Shown here: positions 1 through 11,575 of the stretch, piece by piece
How positions within the stretch are numbered: position 1 is the first letter of the stretch
Layout: each line of letters begins with the position of its first letter
NCBI GenBank assembly: GCA_050293845.1
Contig: JBNKNM010000183.1
Location: 1 to 11,575 of the forward strand
Length of the DNA: 11,575 bases
From: Pseudobacteriovorax sp.
GTDB taxonomy: Bacteria > Bdellovibrionota_B > Oligoflexia > Oligoflexales > Oligoflexaceae
Direction of reading: 5' to 3'
Notes under the pieces: generated by a model
Database searches by the model: none
What the model was told of the DNA's origin: nothing
The model's input: only the letters and a program-made list of their open reading frames with translations
Translations under genes and position numbers: made by a program

Positions 1-635
1 TATGACCTATGCTCATAAGACAATGCAGTATATCTGGTTCAATCGCTACAAAATAAATTCCTCTAACAACCCCATCATAGATCCCTATTGTTCCGCTGCT
101 TGGCGCATCAATCCCCTAATCATCTCAAAAATTAACATTTCCAATGAGGAAAAGTTAACTCTAGCTAACCTTTTGGACTCTGATGATTATATATATCCCG
201 AAAAGATCATAAAATTTGTCAGGGATTTGATCAACTCTGCCATGGGAAGACTTATAGATCTAAACGATGCCTCTTTGATCCATGGTCATACTATTGGTGA
301 TAGAGAAGCAGTTAAATTCAGGGCTGAGCTGCTAAGCTGCTATCGCCGACTGAAAAGTCCGACCACATTTTACTAAGAATCCACCCTACACCAGAGGGTA
401 GGTGCGTCTAATCTGGAAGTCAGGGAGCAATTTCAGATAAATTAATAGACTAAGTTGAGATCTAGCTTTTATTTACTTTAGAAACGTTGATTTTTTGATG
501 CTTCTAAAGCCTCTTTCAAGGAAACTAACCTAAAACAAACTGTATTGGGAGTTTAAGTATTTTTTGGAGAACTTTTTTTCTTAATTTCATGGTTTTAACG
601 CTCCGTCCTCTCTCTCCTCTCTCTCCCCCCCTATT
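1..635 (+). mobile_element. Y1-transposase element copy A (3' part plus right end)
   Basis: 61-339 matches 9063-9341 (20 mismatches in 279 nt by hand count) and 296-604 matches 6591-6900. It ends in ACGCTCCGTCCTC(tc-stutter)CCCTATT at 598-635. Confidence 0.8.
2..376 (+). CDS. C-terminal half of a Y1/HUH (RAYT / IS200 TnpA-like) tyrosine transposase, 5' part outside the window
   Basis: YAHKTMQYIWFNRYK...NP..DPYCS resembles the RAYT 'YI-x-x-N-P...P-x-D-Y-x-W-SS' catalytic-Tyr region, and HGHTIGDREAV resembles the 'G-x-x-LG-x-x-x-F' tail. Copy B joins this C-terminus to a Y1_Tnp-like N-terminus. The ATG at 2 is probably internal. Confidence 0.7.
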   Translation: MTYAHKTMQYIWFNRYKINSSNNPIIDPYCSAAWRINPLIISKINISNEEKLTLANLLDSDDYIYPEKIIKFVRDLINSAMGRLIDLNDASLIHGHTIGDREAVKFRAELLSCYRRLKSPTTFY

Positions 636-744
636 GGAGAGCAGTCGCAGCTGCTTGAAGCATAAAATTCATCGAGCCTTTATTGAAATTAAATGATCAT
701 TCACCATAATCTTAGCAAACTAACGAATGAGTCGAGGAAGAATT

Positions 745-2214
745 ATGGATTATAAGACTAAAGTAGAATCTAATGAAAATTCGTTTCGCGGATCACGGCG
801 TACCTTTATGAAAGGAACGGCTGCAAGTTTAGCCTTCGGGTCTCTAGGTGCCAATAGCGCTAGCGCTTTAGCTAAAAGTGTTTTGGGAGAAAGCAAGCAC
901 CCCTTTTCCAAGAACTACGGCCCTCTTAGCCCCACAACAGATTTGGCCACGGGTCTTGATCTATTAGCTCTTCCTGAAGGATTCATTTACCAATCTTACG
1001 GTTGGACAGGGCAAACTATGTCCGATGGGCGACCAACTCCTACTGACCACGATGGAATGGCTGTGGTGTCGCGTCGAGGCAGTCGTATCTGTTTGGTACG
1101 TAATCATGAACTGTCTGCAGACGAAGGACCACGGTGTACTGTTCCAGGTGGGGAATACAATTTCAGGGAGTGGGGCGGCACTACTAGCCTTGTGTTCAAC
1201 CTAGAAACAGGTCGATTTGAAAAATCTTGGGTTTCTCTGGGCGGAACAATTAGAAACTGTGCGGGAGGTCCAACACCGTGGGGAAGCTGGTTATCTTGCG
1301 AGGAAACCTTCCACAAATGGAACGAACACGCTGATGCTATCAATCATGGCTATATATTCGAGGTGCCGGGTTTTGGAATCGCCACAGGTCAGCCTATTCG
1401 AGCTGCTGGACGTTTTAAACACGAGGCCGTTGCAGTAGATCCGGCTACATCCTTTGTTTATGAAACAGAAGATACAGGGGAGTCTGCCTTTTATAGATAT
1501 GTGCCGCCTGTAGGCGGCAATGGGTCTGGAGTAAGCTGCCAAAAGCTAGAAGATGGCGGTAAGCTTTACGCGATGGTTGTTAATAATACGCCACGCTTTG
1601 ATCTACGCGGTGGATTTATGCAAGGTGCAGAGTTTCAGGTGACCTGGCAGTTAGTAGAAGATCCTGAAGCTAAGGAAATGACGACCTTCCAATCAGCCAC
1701 TGACGCAGCCATCATTAGCCGTGGAGAAGGTTGCTGGGCAGACAAAGGCAAGATCTACTTTGTGTCTACCGATGGAGGTACGGCTAGATTGGGGCAAGTT
1801 TGGGCTTACGACCCTTTGTATGAAACCCTAACCTTAGTTTACGAATCAACACGAGCCAGTGATGTGGATGGCCCGGATAACATCGCCATCAGTCCAAGGG
1901 GTGGCGTGATCTTATGTGAAGATGGTGATTCCAATCCCAAACGACTGATTGGATTAGATAATGAAGGACGCACCTTTGAATTTGCAAAGAATAATATCCA
2001 ACTGAACCAATCAACGTTAACCTCTATCGGCAAACAGTTCCCAGGGGTAGCTGAAAATTTTTGGGATGAATTGAATGCAGATGGATCTATGAAGTCCTTT
2101 ATGGGACGGGAGTGGGCGGGAGCCACATTTTATGGTGAATGGCTATTTGTTAATATCCAGTCACCTGGGGTGACCTTCGCGATCACAGGACCCTGGAGTC
2201 GAGGCTTCCTATAA
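745..2214 (+). CDS. phoX: PhoX-family (DUF839) alkaline phosphatase, Tat-exported
   Basis: Twin-arginine SRRTFMK signal and motifs DHDGM, LVRNHE, NCAGGPTPWGSWLSCEE, GRFKHEA, RGEG, DGPDN, LCEDG, EWAGATF, NIQSPG. The SD GAGGAAG (734-740) favours the ATG at 745 over 727. Confidence 0.88.
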   Translation: MDYKTKVESNENSFRGSRRTFMKGTAASLAFGSLGANSASALAKSVLGESKHPFSKNYGPLSPTTDLATGLDLLALPEGFIYQSYGWTGQTMSDGRPTPTDHDGMAVVSRRGSRICLVRNHELSADEGPRCTVPGGEYNFREWGGTTSLVFNLETGRFEKSWVSLGGTIRNCAGGPTPWGSWLSCEETFHKWNEHADAINHGYIFEVPGFGIATGQPIRAAGRFKHEAVAVDPATSFVYETEDTGESAFYRYVPPVGGNGSGVSCQKLEDGGKLYAMVVNNTPRFDLRGGFMQGAEFQVTWQLVEDPEAKEMTTFQSATDAAIISRGEGCWADKGKIYFVSTDGGTARLGQVWAYDPLYETLTLVYESTRASDVDGPDNIAISPRGGVILCEDGDSNPKRLIGLDNEGRTFEFAKNNIQLNQSTLTSIGKQFPGVAENFWDELNADGSMKSFMGREWAGATFYGEWLFVNIQSPGVTFAITGPWSRGFL

Positions 2215-2276
2215 CCTTTTGTGAAGTAAACTACTCGGCCCTAAAGGACTGACTTTTACCCATAAATAGACAATAC

Positions 2277-2388
2277 GGCACTGGTGCGAACTTTTGTAAC
2301 ACACTAATATTATCACTCACATCAAAAGTAAAATTTACCATAAATTTAGATGGTTGAAAAAACTTAGTCAAAAGTTTGTACCAGTGCC
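2277..2388 (+). mobile_element. 112-bp MITE with 20-bp terminal inverted repeats, derived from the ISAs1-like element at 5082
   Basis: Left GGCACTGGTGCGAACTTTTG (2277-2296) and right CAAAAGTTTGTACCAGTGCC (2369-2388) are 18/20 inverted. 2277-2366 matches 5082-5171 (about 79/90). No clean target-site duplication. Confidence 0.8.
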
Positions 2389-2472
2389 AAATATCTTCCT
2401 TCCCTCGACGCTGAGAAATGTTTTACGATTGCGAGGACAAATAGGGCCTTTTTAAGACTGAAGATGAGATCT

Positions 2473-3837
2473 TTAGTTGCCCAAGAGCTGATAGGCGAGC
2501 TCCAGTAGATCTAAGTCTTTTCCAGGCTTTGATGCAAAGTGGCTTCCTAACGGAAGATCATTGATAGTTGTAAAAAGAGGAACGCTCATTGCCGGAGCGC
2601 CAGCAATATTATGAATGGCAGTATACCCCGCGAACTCAATGGTACGTTTTATGAGGAGCTCTGGATCTAGGCTAGGGGATAGATACCCCAACTCTCTAGC
2701 AGGATAGGGTTGTGTTGGGCAAAGAGTGATATCCACCTTATTCAGGTGATTGATAATAGCCGACTCTGTATCGATTAAAGTCTTTCCCAGTACTTGAAGG
2801 TACTCGGGATCAGTTTTCCGAAATAGATCTCTCACCCATAAGGTGAAAGGTTCAATATGATCTTCCCCTAAGCCTTGAGGAAGCATTTTAGCAACCATCT
2901 TTTCAAGAGTATCTATTGATGCTCCAGCAAATGTAAAAAATGCTCTACCAATAACTGCGGCATCTACTTTTGGTGAATCTATCTGGATCAGTTCATGGCC
3001 TAAATCTCGGCACCGCTCGATAGTTTTATTTAATACTGTCTCGGCTTCACTGGTAATCGGCTTCCCACTACTGGGACACGTATAGTATCCTATTTTAAAC
3101 TTTTTACCTATTGCCCCTTTCACAAATCCAACGGGAGGGTATAGAGCATTCCGATCCTTTCTTTCCGTAATGGATAAGAAGCACGCACTATCTCTCACAC
3201 TTTTAGTGATGCAATGATCCACCAGTAAAGATAAGGGGGATGGTTCTGGAACTGATATAGCATTGACACTTCGCCCTCGACTTGGTTTGAAACCAAATAA
3301 TCCATTTATGGATGCAGGAATGCGTATAGATCCTCCTCCGTCGTTTCCGTGTGCCATAGGTACGATTCCGGCTGAAACAGCAGCCGCAGCGCCACCGCTA
3401 GATCCACCAACGGATAATTTTTCGTCTAGAAAATGTCTTGTGGGTCCATGGAGTAGGGTTTCAGTACTTCCCAAAAGTCCAAATTCAGATGTTGTGGTTT
3501 TTCCAAAAGTGATAAGTCCTGATTTATCAATTTTGTCGATGTATTCAGGAGCATTCTTTGGAATATATTGGGCGAATAGTCGCGATCCCGCGGTAAAAGC
3601 CATGCCAGGATATGGGAGCAAATCCTTGATTAAAAAAGGCACACCTTGGAAGGGACCTTTAGGTATGTGCAACGCTTTTTCCCGTGCTAGGTCTAACTGG
3701 ATAGAACAAATGCCCGTACACGTCGGATCTAGTGCTTCAATTCTGGCGATAACAGCGTCTAGAAGTTCGAGGGGAGAAATTTCCCCGTCCTTAATTTTTT
3801 TTGCTTGCCCTATGGCATCTAACGAAAGGATGTTCAT
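2473..3837 (-). CDS. Amidase-signature family amidase
   Basis: GVPFLIKD (catalytic Lys), GKTTTSEFG, GGSSGGAAAAV, GNDGGGSIRIPAS (Ser-cisSer-Lys triad), GLFGFKPSRG. A GGAGG SD precedes the ATG at 3837, favouring it over 3882. Confidence 0.92.
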   Translation of the reverse strand: MNILSLDAIGQAKKIKDGEISPLELLDAVIARIEALDPTCTGICSIQLDLAREKALHIPKGPFQGVPFLIKDLLPYPGMAFTAGSRLFAQYIPKNAPEYIDKIDKSGLITFGKTTTSEFGLLGSTETLLHGPTRHFLDEKLSVGGSSGGAAAAVSAGIVPMAHGNDGGGSIRIPASINGLFGFKPSRGRSVNAISVPEPSPLSLLVDHCITKSVRDSACFLSITERKDRNALYPPVGFVKGAIGKKFKIGYYTCPSSGKPITSEAETVLNKTIERCRDLGHELIQIDSPKVDAAVIGRAFFTFAGASIDTLEKMVAKMLPQGLGEDHIEPFTLWVRDLFRKTDPEYLQVLGKTLIDTESAIINHLNKVDITLCPTQPYPARELGYLSPSLDPELLIKRTIEFAGYTAIHNIAGAPAMSVPLFTTINDLPLGSHFASKPGKDLDLLELAYQLLGN

Positions 3838-3958
3838 AATTGCCTCCGAAATATTGATTATTAGAAGACCGTTTCTGGTCATAATTCAATTTTCGGCGGG
3901 AAATCTAGTTTTGGGGTACTCCCCAGCTGCTATTCCTGTAGTCCTATTCTGCTATTAT

Positions 3959-4891
3959 TTATAAGATGTTTATTTTTCTCCATAACTCCTGAATAAAAGG
4001 GGATTTATCTGGAGTAAGGAGGTGATCGACCGTAGGGAAGTCTGATGGTTCGTACCCGCTGCGAGGCAACCAAACAGTGGCAAATTCAATATATTGGGGT
4101 AATACACTTTCTTGTGGTCCTTCGCAGGAACAAATCGCAAAGCGTCCACCAGGTATTTTTGTTTTGAGAAGAGGTAAATCTGCAAGTTCAGGAATTGCTT
4201 TTATGCAAGCATCGTAACGACAACGATGGGCCGGAAATAGTCCAGGGTGATCATGGCATATTGCAAAACGGTCAACCGCATCCAATGAGATATTCCTATC
4301 CTCTAACAGCCGTTGAATATAGATCCAAAGGTCTGTAATGGCATCAAGCTGATAACCACAATCACTAGTGAGAAAAAAGACCTCAAAGGGTTGAATTGTT
4401 ACGATGGTGACGCGTTCATCTACATACTTAAATCTACTATTTAGTTCCTCTATAGACGGTTTAGGGTTGGATGTAAAAATTTCTGACGGATTCATCTTTT
4501 TAAGATGCTTGGTTTGTAGTTTTCCAGGCTTTGAAGGTGGTGTAATTAAATATTGTTGCATTTCACTGGGACGAACTCCAAAGAAGCGATCAAATGCTTT
4601 AGAAAAATTTGAGAGCGAGGAATAACCGTATCGAAAGGCAATATCTGTCAAGTTAGTAGCACTACCATAGGCGATTTTTATAGCTGCGGTTTCTAACTTC
4701 TTTCGAGTTACATATTCACCAAAGGTTTCTCCCAATACTTCTTTAAAAACTCTTTGAAAATGATACTCGCTATAACAAGCTATCTTTGCGGCCTCAGGGG
4801 CTGTTATTATGGAATGAATGTTATCGCGAACATATTCAATAACTCTTTGTATTCTTTGGGCACTATCTAAATTGTTTTTAGATCTATTCAT
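3959..4891 (-). CDS. AraC-family regulator with C-terminal GyrI-like ligand-binding domain
   Basis: N-terminal AraC double HTH (ACYSEYHFQRVFK...LTDIAFRYGYSSLSNFSKAFDRFFG) and C-terminal HDHP..CRYDACI..IPGGRFA..WLPRSGY typical of GyrI-like domains. Confidence 0.9.
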   Translation of the reverse strand: MNRSKNNLDSAQRIQRVIEYVRDNIHSIITAPEAAKIACYSEYHFQRVFKEVLGETFGEYVTRKKLETAAIKIAYGSATNLTDIAFRYGYSSLSNFSKAFDRFFGVRPSEMQQYLITPPSKPGKLQTKHLKKMNPSEIFTSNPKPSIEELNSRFKYVDERVTIVTIQPFEVFFLTSDCGYQLDAITDLWIYIQRLLEDRNISLDAVDRFAICHDHPGLFPAHRCRYDACIKAIPELADLPLLKTKIPGGRFAICSCEGPQESVLPQYIEFATVWLPRSGYEPSDFPTVDHLLTPDKSPFIQELWRKINIL

Positions 4892-5081
4892 TTTATGTAT
4901 CCAAGCTCTGTAGTAGAAATACCAAGCAATCAGTCCTAACGATAAACCACCATAATTCTAGTTGAAGTTCATCGTAATTTCTACATTCTTACAAGTTTGC
5001 GACATATATAGTACATCTACCGGCTTTGCTGCAACTGATGGACAACGACGATGATAGTTCACACGTACCAGCTGCTTATGC

Positions 5082-5350
5082 GGCACAGGTGCATACTTTT
5101 GTAACATACTAATATTATTATCCGCATCAAAAGTAAAATTTACCGTAAATTTAGGTGGTTGAAAGAACTTAAATTATCTGATCTTTTTAAGCATGTGGAT
5201 AATCCAAGAAATAAACAAGGACTTATTTATCCCTTAGCCTTTATTTTAAATTGTGCTCAGTAAGCAATTCTTTGTGGTGCTTCTGGATTTAAGCAAATCG
5301 GTGAATGGATAAATGCTCAATCCTATTCACGGATACCGTTGAATTTGTAG
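5082..5350 (+). mobile_element. Truncated ISAs1-like insertion sequence (left end plus transposase 5' fragment)
   Basis: Begins with the TIR-like GGCACAGGTGCATACTTTTG shared with the MITE and is followed by a transposase N-terminal pseudogene. No right TIR seen. Confidence 0.7.
5159..5350 (+). pseudogene. ISAs1-family (DDE_Tnp_1-associated domain) transposase N-terminal fragment
   Basis: Hand translation LKELKLSDLFKHVDNPRNKQGLIYPLAFILNCAQ*AILCGASGFKQIGEWINAQ matches the 'F..V.DPR...G..Y.L..IL......A.LCGA.G...I.EW' pattern. In-frame TAA at 5261-5263. Absent from the ORF track. Confidence 0.75.
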
Positions 5351-5484
5351 CATCATAAGCCATTTTCCCAATCACAATTGTAGATAAACCATTGCCGATG
5401 TTAGATATAAAAACTGAAAGTGGGTAAATTAATCGATTTCTTGATTCAATTTTATAAAACATAATCTATCGAAATTTCCTAATT

Positions 5485-5928
5485 TCAGACCGTACGTTCG
5501 AATCTAATTGCGGGACAGTTTTCTTCATTCTCGGAACTTTCTTCCACCGCTTTGAATCCATGTTTTTTGTAAAAACTAGTGGCTCTATGATTTTCGGCAA
5601 ATGTCCAGAGTGTAAGGACTCCTTCTGATTTTTCTATTGCTGCTTCGAGGAGTTTTGACCCTAAACCTTGCCCAACTTGTTTTGGGGCAAGATAGAGATG
5701 CTCAATCCAGCCACTACCAAAGATAACAAAACCAGTTACAGAACCGTCCATGGCAAAAGCAACAATAATATGAAAATTTGGAGCTACCTCATTTTCAATA
5801 AATCTTTCGAAACTCTCCTTTGTGTACTTGTGTTCTATAAAAGGGAGAGTAAAGCGCCGACTTTCCTCCATAACATGACCAATTTCCTTGTAGTGTTCTT
5901 TTTGCGCGTCTTTCAAAACAAAATTCAT
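5485..5928 (-). CDS. GNAT-family N-acetyltransferase
   Basis: WIEHLYLAPKQVGQGLGSKLL (acetyl-CoA motif A) and LWTFAENHRATSFYKKHGF. Confidence 0.9.
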   Translation of the reverse strand: MNFVLKDAQKEHYKEIGHVMEESRRFTLPFIEHKYTKESFERFIENEVAPNFHIIVAFAMDGSVTGFVIFGSGWIEHLYLAPKQVGQGLGSKLLEAAIEKSEGVLTLWTFAENHRATSFYKKHGFKAVEESSENEENCPAIRFERTV

Positions 5929-5931
5929 AGT

Positions 5932-6213
5932 TTAATCCTTAATTTCTGATTCTAATTGGACAAGAGCTTGTTCTTCAATAGCCGTTGCCATCGACTGAAC
6001 TGTTGAGCATTCATATAGTTGCCAGAGACCTAATTCAATACCTAATATTTCTTGGACCCTGGACAATATCCTCGTTCCCAGGAGAGAGTGCCCGCCAATC
6101 TCAAAGAAATCGTCATGAATTCCAACTTGTTCTATAACTAAAAGGTCTCCCCAAATCTGACAAAGTGCTTCTTCAAGTTCGTTGGTCGGTGGTAAAAAGG
6201 TCCGAGTTTTCTG
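5932..6213 (-). pseudogene. 3' remnant of an NRPS: terminal peptidyl-carrier (phosphopantetheine-binding) domain
   Basis: PPTNELEEALCQIWGDLL..EQVGIHDDFFEIGGHSLL is the A-T linker plus PCP with the conserved Ser. The first ~68 codons of track ORF 5932-6417 look non-homologous and run into element copy B, so the 5' boundary is approximate. Confidence 0.78.
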
Positions 6214-6375
6214 CGAGATTTCACGGAAGATTTTGACGATAGATTCGTCAACACAACAAACTTTACAGCAGACTCTCCTTGGTTTGAGTACCGCCTTGAA
6301 AGTAATTATGGTTCTGTGAGTAGTAACGGCTATCTTTATAGTGGAACATCGAGACAAAATAGAATGTTTCTCTTG

Positions 6376-6984
6376 TTTCTCTGAACAGAGCGCTTCTACA
6401 TACGCAGCTCTATCCATTTAGGTCAGCGACAATCAATGTCACTGGAAACTAGTCCTAAAAACTGTCAATTTTACAATCATGTATTCAAGAAAGCAGATAT
6501 TGTCAGACAACTCATATTCCCATGTATTCTTCAGATGCCACAACAGGCAGTTTTTACTGAAACCTAGGCATGTGAAAGATTACCTTTTGCGGTGATCGAA
6601 AAGCAGTTAAATTTAGGGCTGAGCTAATAAGCTGCTATAGCCGACTGAGAAGTCCGACCACATTTTACTAAGAATCCACCCTACACCAGAGGATTGGTGC
6701 GTCTAATCGGGAAGTCAGGGAGCAATTTCAGATAAATTAATAGTCTAAGTTTAGATCTAGCTTTTATTCACTTTAGAAGCGTTGATTTTTTGATGCTTTC
6801 TAAAGGCTCTTTTAAGGACATGAGCCTAAAATAAATTGTATTGGGAATTTAAGTAGTTTTTGGATAACTTTTTTATTTAATTTCATGGGGTTAACGCTCC
6901 TTCCCCCCTCTTTCTCCCTCTTTGCTTAATACCATTACTTTGACGCTCCGTCCTCCCTATTTTCGTCCTCCCTCTTCTCCCTCT
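6376..6984 (+). mobile_element. Y1-transposase element copy B: non-autonomous, internally deleted, both ends retained
   Basis: 6376-6525 matches 11423-11575 (left end and gene start) and 6591-6900 matches 296-604 (gene end and 3' region). The right-end motif is repeated at 6894, 6939-6961 and partially at 6964-6984. Confidence 0.85.
6479..6671 (+). pseudogene. Internally deleted Y1 transposase (N-terminal 38 codons fused out of frame to the last 26 codons)
   Basis: 6479-6595 reads MYSRKQILSDNSYSHVFFRCHNRQFLLKPRHVKDYLLR*, resembling the Y1_Tnp start 'R..R....YHV..RGNNRQ.IF'. 6591-6671 reads GDRKAVKFRAELISCYSRLRSPTTFY*, matching the end of ORF 2-376. Confidence 0.8.
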
Positions 6985-7025
6985 AACAAGAAGGTCTGGG
7001 GACACCTAACAAAAGCATTAGGGAC

Positions 7026-7628
7026 CTATTTTTTTAGTGTTAGTTTCGATGCGGCATCGGTATAACGGTAGAGGTTTTCCACTTGAACTCCCTCGGGAAT
7101 CTTGAGGGTAATCTCGTTTGCGTTACCATCAACACCAATAAAAATTTCTTTCACATCTTTCTCAATGGAAATATTTACGATATCGTTGTTCCCATTCACG
7201 AAATTACAAAAACTACTGATAGCTTCCTCTGAATTGAGTTGTACATCCACCTGATTGCGATTGCCCTCAATCAGAACGATGCTATCACTATCAAGAAGGA
7301 TGGATTCATTGAGATTGTTCTCATTGAGCCGCACAGACCCTGTCCCCTCGTCATCGTCTTCTTCTTCGTCCATGCGACAGTTCTCTTTGATGAAGGGTGC
7401 ATCAACATCAATGATGTTAAAATCATAGCTTAGCTCCTGCTGCAATTCGCTATCAGAAGTCGGCGCATCCACAGGTGTAATTGGATTTGTCGAGCTAGCA
7501 TCATTGCTTATTCCTACTTGCTCTACGGTTTTTTGTCCTGTTTTTTTTTGATCTAACAAGCCATTCCCACAGGCTGCAATAGTCATCGTGAGGCCCATAG
7601 TTGTCATCATTTTAAAGATCGTTTTCAT
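7026..7628 (-). CDS. Putative lipoprotein of unknown function, acidic, with short (I/V)xGNxN beta-solenoid-like repeats
   Basis: Lipobox IAA-C at Cys20, SD AGGGG, and repeats IEGNRN, VNGNND, VDGNAN. Confidence 0.7.
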   Translation of the reverse strand: MKTIFKMMTTMGLTMTIAACGNGLLDQKKTGQKTVEQVGISNDASSTNPITPVDAPTSDSELQQELSYDFNIIDVDAPFIKENCRMDEEEDDDEGTGSVRLNENNLNESILLDSDSIVLIEGNRNQVDVQLNSEEAISSFCNFVNGNNDIVNISIEKDVKEIFIGVDGNANEITLKIPEGVQVENLYRYTDAASKLTLKK

Positions 7629-7764
7629 TTGTCATCCCCTCTAAATTGAACTTTGATTCGAGTGTTCCGTTTGAGTCTCATGTTCCATAGGCTCCAGGTC
7701 CTGTAACTCTTAATCCTCCGCTAGTGAAACTGTCCTCTAGTTCTTGACCTTACCTACATTAAAC

Positions 7765-7792
7765 GTTTCGGGTTCTATATCACTGAAATTGA
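7765..7792 (-). promoter_or_regulatory. Possible sigma28-like promoter for the lipoprotein gene
   Basis: Minus strand TCAA-N16-CCCGAAAC against consensus TAAA-N15-GCCGATAA; weak match only. Confidence 0.2.
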
Positions 7793-8168
7793 AAAGTATT
7801 TTCCCTGCCTTAATTTCAGTGTAAAATCAGCTAGTAACAGATGCACCAAACCAATTAATTAGCGTTCTATTTTTTAAACTAGCATTTTAAATTGTTTAGA
7901 ATCTATATTAAACTATGTAATATTAGATAGTTATGGTATTAGTTCACGTATGCGTTCTAGAAATGATTTTTTCCTTATTTTTTAATAATAACCATCATCC
8001 TAGAGCAAACCTTGTTAGGGCTGGCTTATCTCTGTCTAAACGTTAGTCACCATTTATGAGTTGTAATAATGCTTTGTATTTCCTCTTGGGCTTCAACTTG
8101 ATATTGTAGAGCCATAGCACAGCCACATCTATTATTCAAACCCAGGTGAGTGCTCAGGAAGAGTTACT

Positions 8169-8948
8169 ATGAAACACATATCAAAGATAAAAAAACTACA
8201 GAAAAAACTTGATGCGAAAAGTCAGGTAAAAACCAAGAAATGGTTTGAGGAATATTTAAAGGGAGCCATCAAGTACAGGGGTGTGAAAACACCTCAGATT
8301 TTAGCTAGTGTAAAAAGCTGGCGCATATCTGAGCGGATTGATGCACTCTCGCCAAAGATACAACTTGAGATCGCGATCAATCTCATACGTCAAAATCATG
8401 CTGAAGATAAATTCTCTGGCATTCTGTACTTACAACACTTTCTATTGAATGATTTGGAATTTGAAATTCTCGCTACTGAGTTTGAGGAATTATTTCAGCA
8501 GTCGCATTTTTATGACTGGTCAACAACTGATTGGTTTAATGTTCGTGTTCTTTCTCCACTCATAAACATCCATGGTAGAAGAGCGATCAAACGGTTCATA
8601 TCATGGTATAACAGCAACAATCTATGGCAAAGACGATCATCGATAGTCAGTCTACGCCCCTGTGTACGGAAATCTGAATGTATTCCAATTATTGAAAAGC
8701 AAATCGCTAGGTTAGTCAGTAGCAATGAACGGTTTATCCAAACAGGTATTGGATGGCTCATTGCGGACCTTGTGAAACAGTCGCCGGAGTCCTCTCAAAT
8801 AATCGTCGAAAAACATCTGAACAAACTATCACTTGAGGTTATCAAGAGACATACAAAACACCTTCCTAAGCACCACTACTACCTCGAAAAGAAAAAGCAG
8901 ATGCTGAGCAGGGTCGATAGGGGGTCCGATGCCACGGCTAGTCTCTGA
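8169..8948 (+). CDS. DNA alkylation repair protein (AlkD-like HEAT-repeat family)
   Basis: YLKG..KYRGVKTP, EDKF.GIL.L, DWSTTDW, W..S.NLWQRRSSIV, ERFIQTGIGWLI. SD AGGA upstream. Confidence 0.85.
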   Translation: MKHISKIKKLQKKLDAKSQVKTKKWFEEYLKGAIKYRGVKTPQILASVKSWRISERIDALSPKIQLEIAINLIRQNHAEDKFSGILYLQHFLLNDLEFEILATEFEELFQQSHFYDWSTTDWFNVRVLSPLINIHGRRAIKRFISWYNSNNLWQRRSSIVSLRPCVRKSECIPIIEKQIARLVSSNERFIQTGIGWLIADLVKQSPESSQIIVEKHLNKLSLEVIKRHTKHLPKHHYYLEKKKQMLSRVDRGSDATASL

Positions 8949-9062
8949 CAATAAGGGACGATACTTCTAGCTAACCAATTTTCGTTCAGTTATGTCAAGT
9001 ATAACTATCATAGAATCCTGTGAAAGGAATTTATGGATTCGCTGCTTCGTAGATGATCACAC

Positions 9063-9500
9063 CTCTAACAACCCCATCAAAGATCCCTATTGTTCCTCTG
9101 CTTAGCGTAGCAATCCCCTAGTCACCGCAAACATTAACATTTCCGATGAGGAAAAGTTAACTCTAGCTAACCTTTTGGACTCTGATGATTATATTTATCC
9201 CGAAAAGATCATAAAATTCGTCAGGGATTTGATCAACTCTGCAATGGGAAGACTTATGGATCTAAATGATGCCTCTTTGATCCATGATCATACCATTAGT
9301 GATCGAGAAGCAGTTAAATTCAGGGCTGAGCTGCTAAACTGAGGTCTAGCTTTTATTTACGTTAGAAGCGTTGATTTTTAGATGCTTGTAAAGCTTCTAT
9401 AAAAAAAACTAACCTAAAATAAATTGTATTGGGAGTTTAAGTAATTTTTTGAGAACTTTTTTGCTTAATTTTATGGCTTTGACGCTCCGTCCTCCCTATT
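9063..9500 (+). mobile_element. Y1-transposase element copy C: 5'-truncated, decayed, right end retained
   Basis: About 93% identical to 61-339, with TGG>TAG at 9103-9105 and a 118-bp deletion near 9335-9341. It then matches 450-610 and ends TTTGACGCTCCGTCCTCCCTATT (9478-9500). Confidence 0.85.
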
Positions 9501-9587
9501 CTAAATGTTTTGGTAAGGATCGTAAGACTACTAGAAAAGGATTTCCAGTACGAATGGACCACGACTGACCCTGAAAAATTATTCTAA
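9501..9587 (+). pseudogene. Possible orphan 3' gene tail (28 codons)
   Basis: Open frame LNVLVRIVRLLEKDFQYEWTTTDPEKLF* starts at the element end, and its stop lies 4 nt before an intrinsic terminator. Confidence 0.4.
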
Positions 9588-9591
9588 AACT

Positions 9592-9616
9592 AGGCCCGAT
9601 GATTCGGGTCTTTTTT
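9592..9616 (+). terminator. Rho-independent terminator
   Basis: AGGCCCGA-tgat-TCGGGTCT stem (one G-U pair) followed by a T run. Confidence 0.7.
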
Positions 9617-9785
9617 ATCTGAAAAATATAAAACCATTGGTGGCGATGATCAATTTATGGGCATCGGTGTTATGATCAGATTCCCGCGGTTTCTAATTGT
9701 ATTCTACACTGATAGGTGGACATAAGAGATTGACACGAAATGTTAGTGATATGACCATAGGATTTGGCTGGTATTTAGGTTGATG

Positions 9786-9819
9786 GAAAAAGCTAAGAGA
9801 GCTGCGCTAAACAGCTCTC
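9786..9819 (-). terminator. Likely terminator hairpin downstream of the CBM lipoprotein gene
   Basis: Perfect 8-bp stem GAGAGCTG/CAGCTCTC (9797-9819), followed on the minus strand by TTAGCTTTTT. Confidence 0.5.
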
Positions 9820-9944
9820 AACAAAATCCTTCACCCAACTATATCTAGTATTTGCTCCTCACTGAGCCTGATCAAAAACCCCATCCAAGTAGCTAAACCT
9901 TTTAATGAAAAGTTCAGATTTCTACTGAGTAAGGGCACCGATAA

Positions 9945-10568
9945 CTATTCCGTTACGACACTAACAGTGGCTTCACCTTCGCCGCCGTTTGTCGCGTATT
10001 GCCAATCTTCCTCGCTAATGATCCCGCCGTTGGTGATAAGTTCTAAAGCGTTTTCCTGGGTTGACATTAAAGTGAGGTCATCAAACCATATTTGATAGGC
10101 TCCGTTAGCACCTAGATTGATTTGAAGTTGAATGGACTCGTCGGTTTCATCGGCGACGAATGTCTTAGTAAACACCTGCCATTCGGTGGTCACTGTCACT
10201 AGATTGTCGGAAGGATAACCCTTGTAGCCATTGTCCTCTCCGAGGTTGGCCTGAACTACCAGCATTTTTTCTTCAGAAGCTTTTGCTCTATAGCTAAGTG
10301 TGTACTCTTGTCCGGCCGTTAAGCCCTGGGGTAAATTCTGGAATACCTGAGGTTCGTAGTTGTTGACACCTGGCTTAGTGACATCAATTTCAAGAATCAA
10401 ATTCTTTTCCTCAGGGTCCGTTGGATCCATCGGTTTCTCGGTTTCTGTGGAAGCTTCCTCTTCAACTGGAGGAGTGCTGTCATCAGAATCTGAGTCTCTG
10501 CAACCGGAACCCATCAAAACAGCTAGGGTTAGTACTGCTAATGGTTTTAGGTTATTTTGTTTACGCAT
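9945..10568 (-). CDS. Lipoprotein with CBM4_9-like carbohydrate-binding domain
   Basis: Lipobox-like MGSG-C, acidic Pro-rich linker, GLTAGQEYTLSYRAKA, VTTEWQVFTKTF, LQINLG...IWFDDLTL. SD AGGAG. Confidence 0.78.
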   Translation of the reverse strand: MRKQNNLKPLAVLTLAVLMGSGCRDSDSDDSTPPVEEEASTETEKPMDPTDPEEKNLILEIDVTKPGVNNYEPQVFQNLPQGLTAGQEYTLSYRAKASEEKMLVVQANLGEDNGYKGYPSDNLVTVTTEWQVFTKTFVADETDESIQLQINLGANGAYQIWFDDLTLMSTQENALELITNGGIISEEDWQYATNGGEGEATVSVVTE

Positions 10569-11296
10569 AGCTACTCCTAATTCATAAATTTTCGTTGATA
10601 TGACCTATGATATATCGAATTAAGCTTATTCCCTCTACTAATTTGACTCTCAAATAATAAGGCTCTTAGCAAGGGAAAACTTCAATTGTTGATTCCATCC
10701 AGACTTGATTACGAAATTGAGATCTTTAAGCCACTGATAGGAAAATGTTTATTGAAGGGTCGCTGATTTTTGAGTTGAATTGACTTTTGTAAGATTTTCG
10801 CTTTATGTCGATTTGATCAAGTATTTTAATACTATGAGAATTTATATTTTAGGTTTGTTTCGCAACCCTCGCTGATTATATCTGTGATATCAACCTGTTA
10901 GTCATATTTTTGATTTTACCCTTAACATGCTATAATCATAGTATTAATCAAGATTTAAAAATAGAGAACAGTAATAAATTCACAGCGATTTTCAGTGATA
11001 TTTGGGAGAGATTTAAACTCTCAAAGTAATTTAACATTACCCGCCGGAATTCCCCCACTAAAGCTCACAGTCCAAAGAACGATTGAGTTAAATGGGGGAT
11101 GGATAGGCGGATTGTGATCCGAGCAATTGCGAGGTGAGTAATCATTTTGTAGTGTACTGCCAACCCGAGAATCCAACTTCCCGTCAATCTTTTGACATAG
11201 ATTAAGCCAGTTTTGCAAGTTCAATTTGAGAATTCATTTCTCTCCATGTCTGTTTTCTTCTCTCTCGGGCCTTTTCTAACTTCATTTCTCTGGATT

Positions 11297-11443
11297 TCTC
11301 TGAACGGAGCTGGATCTCTGAACGGAGCGATTCCAGATTTCTCAGATCTCTCTGAGATCTCTCTGAACGGAGCGATTCTGATTTCTCTTTTCTCTGAACG
11401 GAGCGATTCGATTCCTCTGGGATTTCTCTGAACGGAGCGATTC
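11297..11443 (+). repeat. Five direct copies of TCTCTGAACGGAGC(GATTC), the reiterated left end of the Y1 element
   Basis: Starts at 11297, 11315, 11360, 11391 and 11425 (periods 18, 45, 31, 34). A single variant copy occupies the equivalent position in copy B (6378-6396). Confidence 0.9.
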
Positions 11444-11528
11444 CACATACGAAGCTCAATCCATAAAGTCAGCAGTAACCACTCAATGTCACTGGAACCT
11501 AGTCCTAAAAACTGTCAATTTTACAATC

Positions 11529-11575
11529 ATGTATCCAAGAAAGCAGATATTGCCAGACAACTCATATTCCCATGT
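11529..11575 (+). CDS. 5' start of Y1/RAYT-like transposase (partial)
   Basis: ATG at 11529 reads MYPRKQILPDNSYSH..., homologous to 6479 onward. Intactness beyond the window is unknown. Confidence 0.65.
   Translation, partial: MYPRKQILPDNSYSH

Follow-up and report, generated by a model that had tools for sequence, protein, structure and literature searches.

A probable TIRtron-type Y1 element repeated in one direction among accessory genes of an Oligoflexia genome

How four copies of one mobile element came to lie in a row on the same strand, with unrelated genes between them, is the question raised by the window analysed here, an 11,575-nucleotide stretch of Pseudobacteriovorax sp. that constitutes an entire contig (G000:C183) of a 741-contig draft genome whose contigs break at this element and at other repeats. 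The preliminary description read the locus as a gene-accumulation platform, built by an element that preferentially inserts or recombines next to its own ends and takes adjacent DNA along. Repeat families, BLAST against the full copy, which is seen only on contig C7, and protein matches locate four copies or remnants (A–D; ~1–632, 6367–6985, 8989–9497 and 11290–11575), all on the + strand, with spacers of 5.7, 2.0 and 1.8 kb; the four same-family copies within 11.6 kb and the spacers of about 5.7, 2.1 and 1.8 kb described earlier are thereby borne out. Because the window is a whole assembly contig, the outer copies A and D are cut by its ends. Below, ‘ref’ denotes the reverse complement of C7:60950–62650 (ORF at ref 394–1140), and LE and RE the left and right ends of the element.

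1–632, + strand: element copy A, cut by the contig start; 1–609 corresponds to ref 766–1377 (93%, BLAST)
727–2214, + strand: PhoX-type alkaline phosphatase, intact, 495 aa (PF05787, E 3.2e-66)
2273–2395, no strand: MITE-like dispersed repeat with 20-nt inverted arms; copies on C85, C622, C614 and C607
2473–3882, − strand: amidase, intact, 469 aa (PF01425, E 1.1e-74)
3959–4891, − strand: AraC-family regulator with GyrI-like effector domain, intact, 310 aa (profile match)
5485–5928, − strand: GNAT acetyltransferase, intact, 147 aa (PF00583, E 1.5e-13)
5932–6237, − strand: NRPS C-terminal carrier (PP-binding) domain, a gene scrap with upstream modules missing (PF00550)
6367–6985, + strand: element copy B, internal-deletion derivative with both ends kept
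7026–7628, − strand: predicted lipoprotein of no known family, 200 aa (profile searches without a family match)
8169–8948, + strand: DNA alkylation repair (AlkD-like HEAT repeat) protein, 259 aa (PF08713, E 1.8e-27)
8989–9497, + strand: element copy C, 5′ truncated, without LE and HUH motif
9498–9709, no strand: IS21-family right-end fragment abutting the RE of copy C; 88% identical to C353:3992–4204
9945–10568, − strand: lipoprotein with CBM_4_9 carbohydrate-binding domain, 207 aa (PF02018, E 8.5e-8)
11030–11284, no strand: terminal-sequence fragment of another multicopy element; copies in G001, G002 and this genome
~11290–11575, + strand: element copy D, cut by the contig end; LE array and tnpA start

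The element is ~1.2–1.5 kb long and consists, in order, of an array of LE units, a gene for a Y1 HUH transposase of 234–248 aa, a 230-nt untranslated part and an array of RE units. Each end comprises 1–10 short units, the left-end unit reading TTTCTCT-GAACGGAGCG... and the right-end unit ...CGCTCCGTCC-TCCCTCTT, with 10-nt cores that are mutually inverted; these units are rare away from element copies. The transposase encoded on C7 matches Pfam Y1_Tnp (47.5 bits versus a cut-off of 23), and its N73-H74-x-H76 (NHAH) motif and Y134 are invariant in 29 family members. A Foldseek search with its AlphaFold model (pLDDT 83.6) returned RAYT 4er8 as the best match (E 1.4e-5), followed by IS608 and ISDra2 TnpA, whilst the best NCBIfam model is REP_Tyr_transpos (score 41.6, below the cut-off of 80) and the IS200 model scores 31.8 (cut-off 55). 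Sequence and model together identify a predicted Y1/HUH enzyme of the RAYT/TIRYT-like class, in agreement with the Y1/RAYT-like, HUH-type identity first proposed. The end units have no stable hairpin fold (z-scores +0.28 to −0.89), unlike the ends of IS200/IS605 elements or REPs, and the mode of recognition may therefore differ from either; a reading of the ends as REP hairpins was rejected, as the units lack both GTAG and a stable hairpin.

The likeness to TIRtrons, whose TIRYT transposases (Di Nocera et al. 2013, PMC3733652) largely correspond to TnpA-Y1 subclass 2.1 (Quentin et al. 2018, PMC6006769), is drawn from the published description of that subclass and lies in a RAYT-like Y1 protein of ~240 aa (core, then a ~100-aa C-terminal tail), a gene flanked by inverted repeats other than GTAG REPs, end repeats in dimers or clusters, and a host from a former delta-proteobacterial lineage. 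The element differs in that the whole unit is multicopy (~27 loci, whereas subclass 2.1 averages 1.9 copies per genome, with 49% identity; PMC6006769), the GGGGWSAS motif as published does not match its inverted core (GAACGGAGCG), and it has NHAH and a tyrosine motif Y-x3-N-R rather than Y-x3-N-P. The best structural match, RAYT 4er8 of E. coli, and the best NCBIfam model also recall the REPtrons (RAYT/TnpA-REP with REP/BIME or REPIN), on which Bertels and Rainey and Ton-Hoang et al. have reportedly worked. RAYT genes are typically single-copy, with evidence of mobility absent, whereas here the gene itself has spread and decayed and its units lack the GTAG and stable hairpin of REPs. Short repeats, inverted relative to each other, flank the gene and are multiplied beside it as in the Marinomonas REPtrons, whose description includes REPs multiplied next to tnpA (Corneloup et al. 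2021, PMC8266576); its most frequent flanking 16-mer, however, occurs 15–16 times, compared to 57 and 140 in REP-associated groups (PMC5581495), and its REP_Tyr_transpos score is sub-threshold. With the IS200/IS605 elements IS608 and ISDra2 it shares the Y1 HUH fold and a high copy number with partial copies, and a long target duplication is not evident; it differs in having a tyrosine motif other than Y-x3-Q, a sub-threshold IS200 score, no tnpB, a long C-terminal tail, and ends made of unit arrays with an inverted core rather than single subterminal hairpins.

Copy A retains tnpA codons 125–248 at 2–376, open (94% aa identity, no stop), followed by the untranslated part, one RE unit (587–616) and a CT-rich tail to ~632. 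Copy B has an LE unit (6376–6404), the ORF start (6479), two RE units (6883–6912 and 6932–6961) and a tail to 6985, its right boundary being set by the homology of 6986–7143 to C421; an internal deletion joins ref 548 to ref 1061 at 6590/6591, and the protein matches cover aa 8–53, with a TGA, and aa 222–248. In copy C, aa 121–236 are encoded at 8989–9339 (73% identity, TAG stop), and BLAST aligns 9062–9341 with ref 825–1104 and 9334–9496 with ref 1218–1380, giving a 110-nt deletion in the 3′ untranslated part ahead of one RE unit (9471–9500). Copy D begins with five LE units (heads at 11295, 11313, 11358, 11389 and 11423) and ends within tnpA (ATG at 11529, first 15 codons; protein match to aa 8–29 at 100%). 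Two of the four copies are thus dead, B being without the catalytic core and C without LE and HUH motif; of the differing states of decay described earlier, degradation holds for these two, A and D being cut by the contig ends. A and D may even belong to a single copy on a circular molecule, each being one of its ends; neither a replication gene nor an overlap of the contig ends was found in the window. Elsewhere in the genome, internal-deletion derivatives with both ends occur on C175 and C2, independent of copy B and with different joints, and copies on C132 and C407 are cut by the ends of other IS elements that are 100% identical across many contig ends. Copies of the element decay by internal deletion, truncation and the insertion of younger IS elements.

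Identity among the window copies is 81–87% over the 3′ part and 91% over the 5′ part, and copies on other contigs are at least as close to them. They therefore represent separate events, as the preliminary description had argued, and a single local duplication as their origin is ruled out. The element is present at ~27 loci on 21 contigs, mostly decayed, with ORF-bearing fragments of 81–98% identity in unrelated flanks on 20 contigs, which suggests, from sequence, an element mobile as a unit. When 27 loci were placed at random over the 741 contigs (20,000 runs), four fell within 11.6 kb in 0.005% of runs (P ~5e-5); six neighbour pairs lie within 7 kb, against a mean of 0.56 expected, a number reached in 0/20,000 simulations, and five of the six are co-oriented. 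The clustering that the preliminary description led us to look for is present, and neighbouring copies mostly share a direction. Exceptions to the shared direction are two solo LE units in opposite directions on C161 and an inverted RE-type tail adjoining an LE array on C86. With elements masked, the coding strand is the C-rich strand in 13/20 contigs (P 0.26) and in 7/8 contigs with significant skew (P 0.07), neither value being significant; the window's own flanks have no skew.

The element also piles up next to its own ends, as had been claimed. In this genome, end-unit arrays and same-direction partial copies lie directly upstream of full copies on C7, C356 and C86; three other genomes have arrays of end units in whose core CGGAG is conserved, and partial or deleted copies that lie 0.2–6 kb upstream of full copies and in the same direction, a fourth (G024) is alike in its arrays and partial copies, and related elements in other Oligoflexales genera share both traits. 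The head-to-tail layout of the window (RE, a few kb, LE) recurs on C359 (4 kb), C175 (6 kb) and L040 of another genus (6 kb).

We read this, at a probability of roughly 0.62, as an IS-like Y1 element of the TIRtron type whose insertion is strand-specific and local, within an accessory region rich in repeats. The window would be such a stretch of an Oligoflexia chromosome into which the element has inserted several times. By analogy with IS608, ISDra2 and RAYT, the transposase would cut and rejoin one DNA strand at the end units and the element would move as single-stranded DNA at replication forks, the strand, cleavage sites and single-strand mechanism here being taken from homology only. Single-strand transposition of the IS608/ISDra2 type is strand-specific, gives one orientation per replication direction and favours stalled forks. 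Such a mode would explain why neighbouring copies are close together and share a direction, and how existing copies come to be accompanied by multiplied end units and partial copies.

We read the genes between the copies as resident accessory genes together with debris of other mobile elements, not as captured cassettes. All are single-copy in the genome, and the blocks contain two to five genes that face both ways, along with intergenic repeats of their own and scraps of other IS elements. The PhoX ortholog in the same-genus genome G001 (72% aa identity) lies on another contig and has none of the other cargo genes as neighbours. In G002 (contig C18) the amidase ortholog (55% identical) adjoins an AraC ortholog (61%) with order and relative strand kept; AraC regulator and amidase form a conserved pair, and there is no close element copy near it in that relative, which argues against a cassette-like array. 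A second member of the MITE-like family (5078–5171, 87%) lies on the opposite side of this pair. The predicted lipoprotein at 7026–7628 has a 37% identical relative in G002, and the AlkD-like protein has relatives on G002:C27 and G001:C67; for the GNAT acetyltransferase no convincing ortholog was found in five relatives (one weak match, E 5.4e-4), nor for the CBM_4_9 lipoprotein (one weak match). The NRPS scrap lies in a frame of 161 aa, with PF00550 at aa 83–147 and NRPS models matching aa 67–156 only; the first codons of this frame (to 6417) are inside the LE unit of copy B. The stretch of C353 resembling 9498–9709 starts 24 nt past the stop of an IstB_IS21 gene (PF01695, E 6.5e-33), and 11030–11284 matches, at 87–89%, the terminal ~80 nt at one or other end of at least ten G001 contigs and has matches in G002 and weaker copies in this genome on C143, C66 and C89. 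Across the genome, 6/15 RE and 2/15 LE flanks abut other dispersed repeats.

An unlikely alternative is that dispersed same-direction copies recombined, either by homology or by the transposase joining ends of different copies, so that deletions, translocations and chimeric copies juxtaposed the blocks and the array records rearrangement rather than simple insertions. Joining the flanks of any window copy yields no intact ancestral site: copy B lies between the NRPS scrap and an unrelated lipoprotein terminator, and copy C is without its left half and has its RE against the IS21 scrap; none of the window copies thus gives evidence of having simply inserted into an intact locus. The 5′ part of copy B is nearest to C262 (96%) and its 3′ part at most 87% identical to any copy, which would fit a chimera, and the cargo genes are on different contigs in G001 and G002. 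However, copies only 81–93% alike over a few hundred bases are poor substrates for homologous recombination, and relatives as diverged as these (72% aa identity for PhoX, even within the genus) would be expected to have lost synteny; the genes next to PhoX in G001, and those next to the AraC–amidase pair in G002, have no adjacent orthologs at all in this genome. Nor was a reciprocal product seen, the missing NRPS part not being found beside another element copy.

The preliminary description's own reading, an HUH-driven platform that carries adjacent DNA into a cassette-like array, is improbable, also in the variant in which same-direction LE and RE of neighbouring copies are used jointly and move RE–cargo–LE or LE–copy–cargo–copy–RE segments. 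It is partly supported: all three points on which it could have failed were checked, and HUH/Y1 homology is present, copies are clustered and mostly co-oriented, and no contiguity of the cargo was found among the relatives searched, although, since the cargo is non-syntenic there, ancestral contiguity of the blocks is not shown either. Self-end piling is a family trait, the layout recurs on C359, C175 and L040, and where several LE and RE ends share a strand, excision of composite segments by a Y1 enzyme is conceivable in principle. Positive evidence for capture, however, is nil. None of 30 flanks (15 LE-side and 15 RE-side, 600 nt each) is common to loci, and there is therefore no sign of flank transduction; single-copy genes, in both orientations and mixed with mobile-element scraps, likewise tell against flanking DNA having been brought along, ordinary chromosomal genes (porin, PAP2, serine hydrolase) lie between same-direction copies elsewhere, and half of the window copies are dead. 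The resemblance to ISCR/IS91 and integrons is one of layout only, with repeated element ends between unrelated genes. ISCR/IS91 elements have a two-tyrosine (Y2) rolling-circle HUH enzyme and carry flanks by read-through of one end, whereas the present enzyme has one tyrosine; integrons require attI/attC sites, a tyrosine recombinase and unidirectional cassettes without promoters, all absent here, where blocks of several genes replace one-gene cassettes.

Logan contigs from two metagenome runs cross element/flank junctions with 0 differences (506–1707, over the RE junction of copy A; 5299–6459; 6832–7996; 8024–9091), and the last junction, left of copy D, is crossed by one covering 10572–11506 with 2 differences; because both runs may be the source sample, this bridging is not independent support. 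That metagenome assembly fused separate stretches through the repeated element, making the contig a chimera in which the four copies are not true neighbours, is scarcely credible: the 741-contig draft does break at this and other repeats, and among the Logan contigs listed none spans the inside of copy B (6460–6831) or copy C (9092–9838), but no other copy exceeds 96% (5′) or 90% (3′) identity to either of these two, and their deletion joints are private, so that their k-mers are largely unique, the outer junctions are all crossed by these unitig-level contigs, depth is similar across the unique blocks (5.7–10.2 in run X1), and the layout recurs on other contigs and in other assemblies.

The source genome (G000) is a 6.68-Mb draft in 741 contigs (N50 21.5 kb, GC 41%), in which the only complete copy found of the Y1 element, an IS-like repeat with a Y1 HUH transposase gene between arrays of left-end (LE) and right-end (RE) units, lies at C7:61064–62506 (C-numbers denote contigs of this assembly). 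The reverse complement of C7:60950–62650, with the ORF at positions 394–1140, was used as the reference. Both matching to this reference and self-comparison of the window (the whole of contig C183) bear out the preliminary description of four copies, all on the + strand, and give spacers of 5.7, 2.0 and 1.8 kb between them:

1–609, + strand: copy A (reference 766–1377), residues 125–248 with no stop; cut by the contig start
6367–6985, + strand: copy B, an LE unit, the first 37 and last 27 codons, the 3′ untranslated part and two RE units; reference 549–1060 lost
8989–9497, + strand: copy C, beginning at residue 121, stop present, no left end, an extra 110-nt deletion
~11290–11575, + strand: copy D, five LE units and the first 15 codons, then the contig end

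The repeat pairs underlying these copies are 60–339 with 9062–9341 (93%), 296–503 with 6591–6798 (93%) and 6430–6525 with 11480–11575 (96%); a 52-nt unit occurs four times. No tRNA genes or known RNA families were found in the window. The assembly breaks off within copies A and D, so only part of each is visible, and the two may be one copy if the contig is circular; against this, its ends do not overlap and no 11575-to-1 joint occurs among the Logan contigs (contigs of two metagenome runs). The Logan contigs span every unique part of the window, and the pieces listed for the unique blocks are free of differences, except for 10572–11506 (two differences), which bridges the last element/flank junction; the other junctions are bridged with 0 differences (506–1707, 5299–6459, 6832–7996 and 8024–9091). 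As these runs may be the source of the assembly, this agreement is a consistency check only. Depth is 5.7–10.2 over the unique blocks in one run (X1) and sums to 38–197 over the element parts, which fits a multicopy repeat. Joints seen in Logan contigs were rejected as excision or circle products; they connect different repeat copies, with short sides of 20–45 letters.

Across the genome, the Y1 element occupies approximately 27 loci on 21 contigs (24 matches at the protein level, with ORF-containing fragments on 20 contigs). Since 11 of these loci touch a contig end, some may be halves of one copy. The C7 copy alone is visibly intact; three loci (copy B, C175 and C2) are internal-deletion derivatives whose joints all differ, and others are 5′-only or 3′-only pieces. 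Copies on C132 (15010–15086) and C407 (3509–3588) are disrupted by the termini (74–77 nt) of other IS families, which recur at many contig ends with 98.7–100% identity; the fragmentation of the assembly into 741 contigs is probably due to these younger, active families. Identity between Y1-element copies is 81–98%, far below the 99% typical of copies in subclass 1.1 (PMC6006769, Table 1), indicating an old burst. The window copies are 81–91% alike (A–B 87%, A–C 86%, B–C 81%, B–D 91%), and closer relatives lie elsewhere (D is 97% identical to a copy on C359 and B 96% to one on C262). None of them thus has its nearest relative within the window, which points to separate events spread over time, and the earlier proposal of repeated events rather than one duplication stands.

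The full ORF comprises 248 codons, with a start at M15 (MYPRKQ) in most homologs and most copies here, giving 234 residues. Residues 26–135 of the full C7 copy match Pfam PF01797 (Y1_Tnp) at 47.5 bits (curated cut-off 23; E 2.4e-12), in agreement with the Y1/HUH identity first proposed; the 124-residue window fragment alone, in which the core is absent, gave no PF01797 match. An alignment of 29 family members shows N73-H74-x-H76, Y134 and N138 to be invariant. In an AlphaFold model (pLDDT 83.6), Y134 sits within a helix (125–142); from model and alignment, the core is predicted to extend to approximately residue 142, with a helical tail at 155–240, in which no HTH domain was detected with Pfam (a relative, P0009, has N-terminal HTH domains). 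The best Foldseek match of the model is 4er8_A, an E. coli RAYT in complex with a REP hairpin (E 1.4e-5; TM 0.66 normalised to the target), followed by the IS608 (2vjv_A, E 1.4e-4) and ISDra2 transposases; there were 22 matches at E ≤ 0.001, and those listed are all Y1 transposases. The link to solved structures from sequence alone is weak, with 0 phmmer matches and E 0.02 to ISDra2 in a profile search. The best-scoring NCBIfam model is REP_Tyr_transpos (41.6 bits; cut-off 80), followed by transpos_IS200 (31.8 bits; cut-off 55), each under its cut-off. The Pfam score, the NCBIfam ranking, the invariant residues and the structural matches together assign the predicted protein to the one-tyrosine HUH transposases, as a divergent member of the RAYT-like class.

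A two-tyrosine (Y2) enzyme, for which the nearly invariant Y127 might be cited, was rejected; this residue lies seven positions before Y134, a spacing different from the rolling-circle Y-x3-Y, and a tyrosine at this place is common in RAYT-like proteins. The genome also encodes a second, distant Y1 paralog (C284:3936–4625), which is 34% identical to the element protein and contains one in-frame TGA.

Upstream of the gene lie 1–10 LE units of TTTCTCTGAACGGAGCG(C)TTCCACATACG, and downstream 1–10 RE units of (TCATGGCTTT)GACGCTCCGTCCTCCCTCTT; their 10-nt cores, GAACGGAGCG and CGCTCCGTCC, are inverted relative to each other, and the coding strand is pyrimidine-rich at both ends. Predicted folding of the end units as single strands did not beat shuffled sequence (z +0.28 to −0.89), the only stem being a 4-bp GACG/CGTC, and neither a GTAG tag nor the GGGGWSAS motif was present in the LE or RE units. 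The first LE unit is preceded by ‘TA’ in 10/16 junctions and the RE side terminates in ...CCCT(C)TA at four (B, C, C407 and C72); this sequence pattern hints weakly at cleavage following TA at each end. Nearly all end units belong to element copies; the few that stand alone lie on C161, C179, C341, C72 and C312. At C179:2000–2060, two inverted LE units form a near-perfect palindrome resembling a REPIN doublet, the sole such case seen. Proliferation of the units in the manner of REPs was considered and rejected: the most abundant flanking 16-mers of the element occur 15–16 times genome-wide, far fewer than in REP families, and are tied to element copies, and the most abundant 16-mers of the genome belong to another repeat. 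The latter (~30–33 copies each) overlap in chains and derive from one or two GC-richer families of dispersed repeats, unrelated to the Y1 element.

Placement in the Y1 superfamily is supported by the profile score above cut-off, the HUH motif with one catalytic tyrosine on the next helix, and the TnpA fold. Within the superfamily, the element was compared with three described groups. RAYT/REPtron genes are typically single- or low-copy, with no evidence of mobility, and their GTAG REPs are palindromic and dispersed in high numbers, whereas here, with REP_Tyr_transpos as the best model, albeit under cut-off, ORF fragments occur on 20 contigs and the units have neither a GTAG nor a stable hairpin. 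With respect to the Y-x3-N-P tyrosine motif of class 2 (PMC6006769, Table 1), the Y and N are invariant here and position 139 is R in at least 90% of the 29 sequences; more distant paralogs in two other genomes (G015 and G002) carry N-P. IS200/IS605 elements are multicopy, with partial copies and high identity between copies; the element studied here is multicopy with many partial copies, at the 81–98% identity given above. The IS200/IS605 motif is Y-x3-Q, and the ends of that family have subterminal hairpins and no terminal inverted repeats, as against the inverted 10-nt core common to both ends here. The element resembles TIRtrons (subclass 2.1, with TIRYT proteins) in that the protein is RAYT-like, of 234–248 residues, with a C-terminal extension, and the clustered inverted repeats are unrelated to GTAG REPs; the inverted cores and arrays recur in G023, G024 and L040 (genomes or loci of the order). 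The length and tail recall subclass 2.1/TIRYT as described in PMC6006769 and PMC3733652; the GGGGWSAS repeats and HTH-type C-terminal domain of that group were not found in the Y1 element. The most fitting classification is as a TIRtron-like Y1 element of the RAYT class that behaves like an insertion sequence. Open-access full-text keyword searches returned no description of such a family.

RAYT-class genes are regarded as single-copy and domesticated, and the introduction of PMC8266576 states that ‘there is no evidence of tnpAREP mobility’. In contrast, the protein nearest that class by structure and profile is found here in a unit that spread whole to approximately 27 loci and then decayed. 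Provided that the class assignment is correct, the Oligoflexales family would be a living link between IS200/IS605 elements on one side and domesticated REPtrons/TIRtrons on the other, and would offer a practical system for studying how such enzymes recognise non-hairpin ends.

The clustering noted in the preliminary description exceeds chance. In 20,000 random placements of 27 loci over the contigs, 0.005% brought four loci together inside 11.6 kb; neighbour pairs no more than 7 kb apart averaged 0.56 per simulation and never numbered six or more, against six observed. Neighbours mostly share an orientation. Five of the six pairs are co-oriented (three on C183 and one each on C359 and C175), as are tandem partial copies on C356 and C7, and on C202 a left end is preceded, at a distance of 1.1 kb upstream, by a co-oriented RE-like array. 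The sixth pair, two solo units on C161, is opposed, and an inverted RE-type tail beside an LE array on C86 speaks against strict co-orientation. With elements masked, the coding strand is the C-rich strand in 13/20 contigs (P 0.26) and in 7/8 of those significantly skewed (P 0.07), which is suggestive only of a link to GC skew; the window's own flanks are uninformative.

The element protein occurs in 9/41 genomes of the order, G000 included, and was not found in the one other genome of the genus (G001, 94% complete). A GTDB search with a single protein as query found no close relatives; with the family alignment, 38 loci were recovered, 19 of them close relatives, nearly all with a label of Oligoflexales or Bdellovibrionota MAG; a single MAG contributes at least six loci. 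The homologs that carry names are from MAGs of Oligoflexales and other Bdellovibrionota. In G023 and G024 the gene again lies between unit arrays with a CGGAG core (in G024, GAACGGAGCA upstream and CTCCGTTC downstream), and each has a decayed or partial copy immediately upstream that points the same way; at L040, in another Oligoflexales genus, a full copy has a co-oriented internal-deletion derivative 6 kb upstream. An extra fragment was found at 3/19 close-relative loci, upstream and co-oriented in all three. Piling beside its own ends, as suggested earlier, and same-direction neighbours are therefore family traits, the end-unit arrays and same-direction partial copies being common to G000, G023, G024 and L040.

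The present data document how the element is built, that it has spread as a complete unit, that its copies cluster locally in one direction, that the end units have multiplied and that copies have decayed. By analogy with the family, transposition would proceed by single-strand cutting and joining at the end units and may be coupled to the replication fork, as for IS608 and ISDra2, which are described as having one insertion orientation per replication direction and an attraction to stalled forks (PMC5027513). Local multiplication of the ends may likewise resemble that described next to Marinomonas tnpA-REP genes (PMC8266576).

The three blocks between the copies contain the following genes and remnants of other mobile elements:

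Block 1 (A–B), + strand: PhoX phosphatase, intact
Block 1, − strand: amidase
Block 1, − strand: AraC/GyrI regulator
Block 1, − strand: GNAT
Block 1, − strand: NRPS carrier-domain scrap
2273–2395 and 5078–5171, in direct orientation: MITE-like hairpin element with 20-nt inverted arms, also on several other contigs, flanking the amidase–AraC pair
5019–5084 and 5165–5290: further small dispersed repeat families with copies on several other contigs
Block 2 (B–C), − strand: lipoprotein
Block 2, + strand: DNA alkylation repair protein
9498–9709: IS21-family right-end fragment directly after the RE of copy C, 88% identical to DNA following an IstB gene (C353:3992–4541)
Block 3 (C–D), − strand: CBM lipoprotein
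11030–11284: terminal fragment of another multicopy element, before copy D

The last of these matches the terminal ~80 nt with which at least 10 G001 contigs begin or end, as well as sites in another genome (G002); it presumably represents one end of a further multicopy insertion sequence, the body of which is unassembled in G001.

The proposal that the element brings flanking DNA with it finds no support in the flanks themselves. Had the element carried them, a flank should recur beside another locus, yet among 30 flanks compared (600 nt each; 15 left and 15 right) no two match. Flank carriage as in ISCR elements is also disfavoured by the type of enzyme, since it involves a Y2 rolling-circle enzyme and flanks recurring with the element. 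Another dispersed repeat begins at once in 6/15 right and 2/15 left flanks, two of these cases being in the window: the IS21 scrap, and a 158-nt segment (6986–7143; 94% identical to C421:2855–3012) that comprises the last 38 codons of the lipoprotein gene and a terminator hairpin, its homology to C421 beginning exactly at the end of the right end of copy B. We read such cases as nesting of mobile elements in tolerant DNA rather than as transduction.

A broader reading is that the family targets its own ends, so building same-direction arrays, and that the Y1 enzyme cuts at the ends of different copies and excises, deletes or moves the DNA between them, making the arrays sites of single-strand, HUH-driven gene shuffling with no integrase. 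The presence of several left and right ends on one strand would permit such cutting. We nevertheless consider this reading very improbable (under one chance in ten), and the gene-accumulation platform initially envisaged currently has no support: every cargo gene is single-copy in G000, the genes face both ways, the enzyme has one catalytic tyrosine, and the blocks bear no resemblance to integron cassettes, the window lacking the integrase (a tyrosine recombinase, which in integrons acts with att sites).

Synteny cannot separate these readings, as G001 matches the window cargo at the DNA level in PhoX only (67%, at a contig end) and the relatives' own PhoX and AraC neighbours have no nearby orthologs in G000; the relatives are too diverged for missing synteny to say much. 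The GNAT and CBM proteins were not found in the five genomes searched, a PhoX ortholog lies on G001:C7, the AraC–amidase pair is adjacent on G002:C18, and relatives of the alkylation repair gene lie on G001:C67 and G002:C27. The G001 ortholog of the latter (C67:135429–136141) matches in two pieces in different frames and may be broken there. Over window positions 1001–2000 the PhoX gene has a GC content of 0.48–0.50, compared with 0.41 for the genome.
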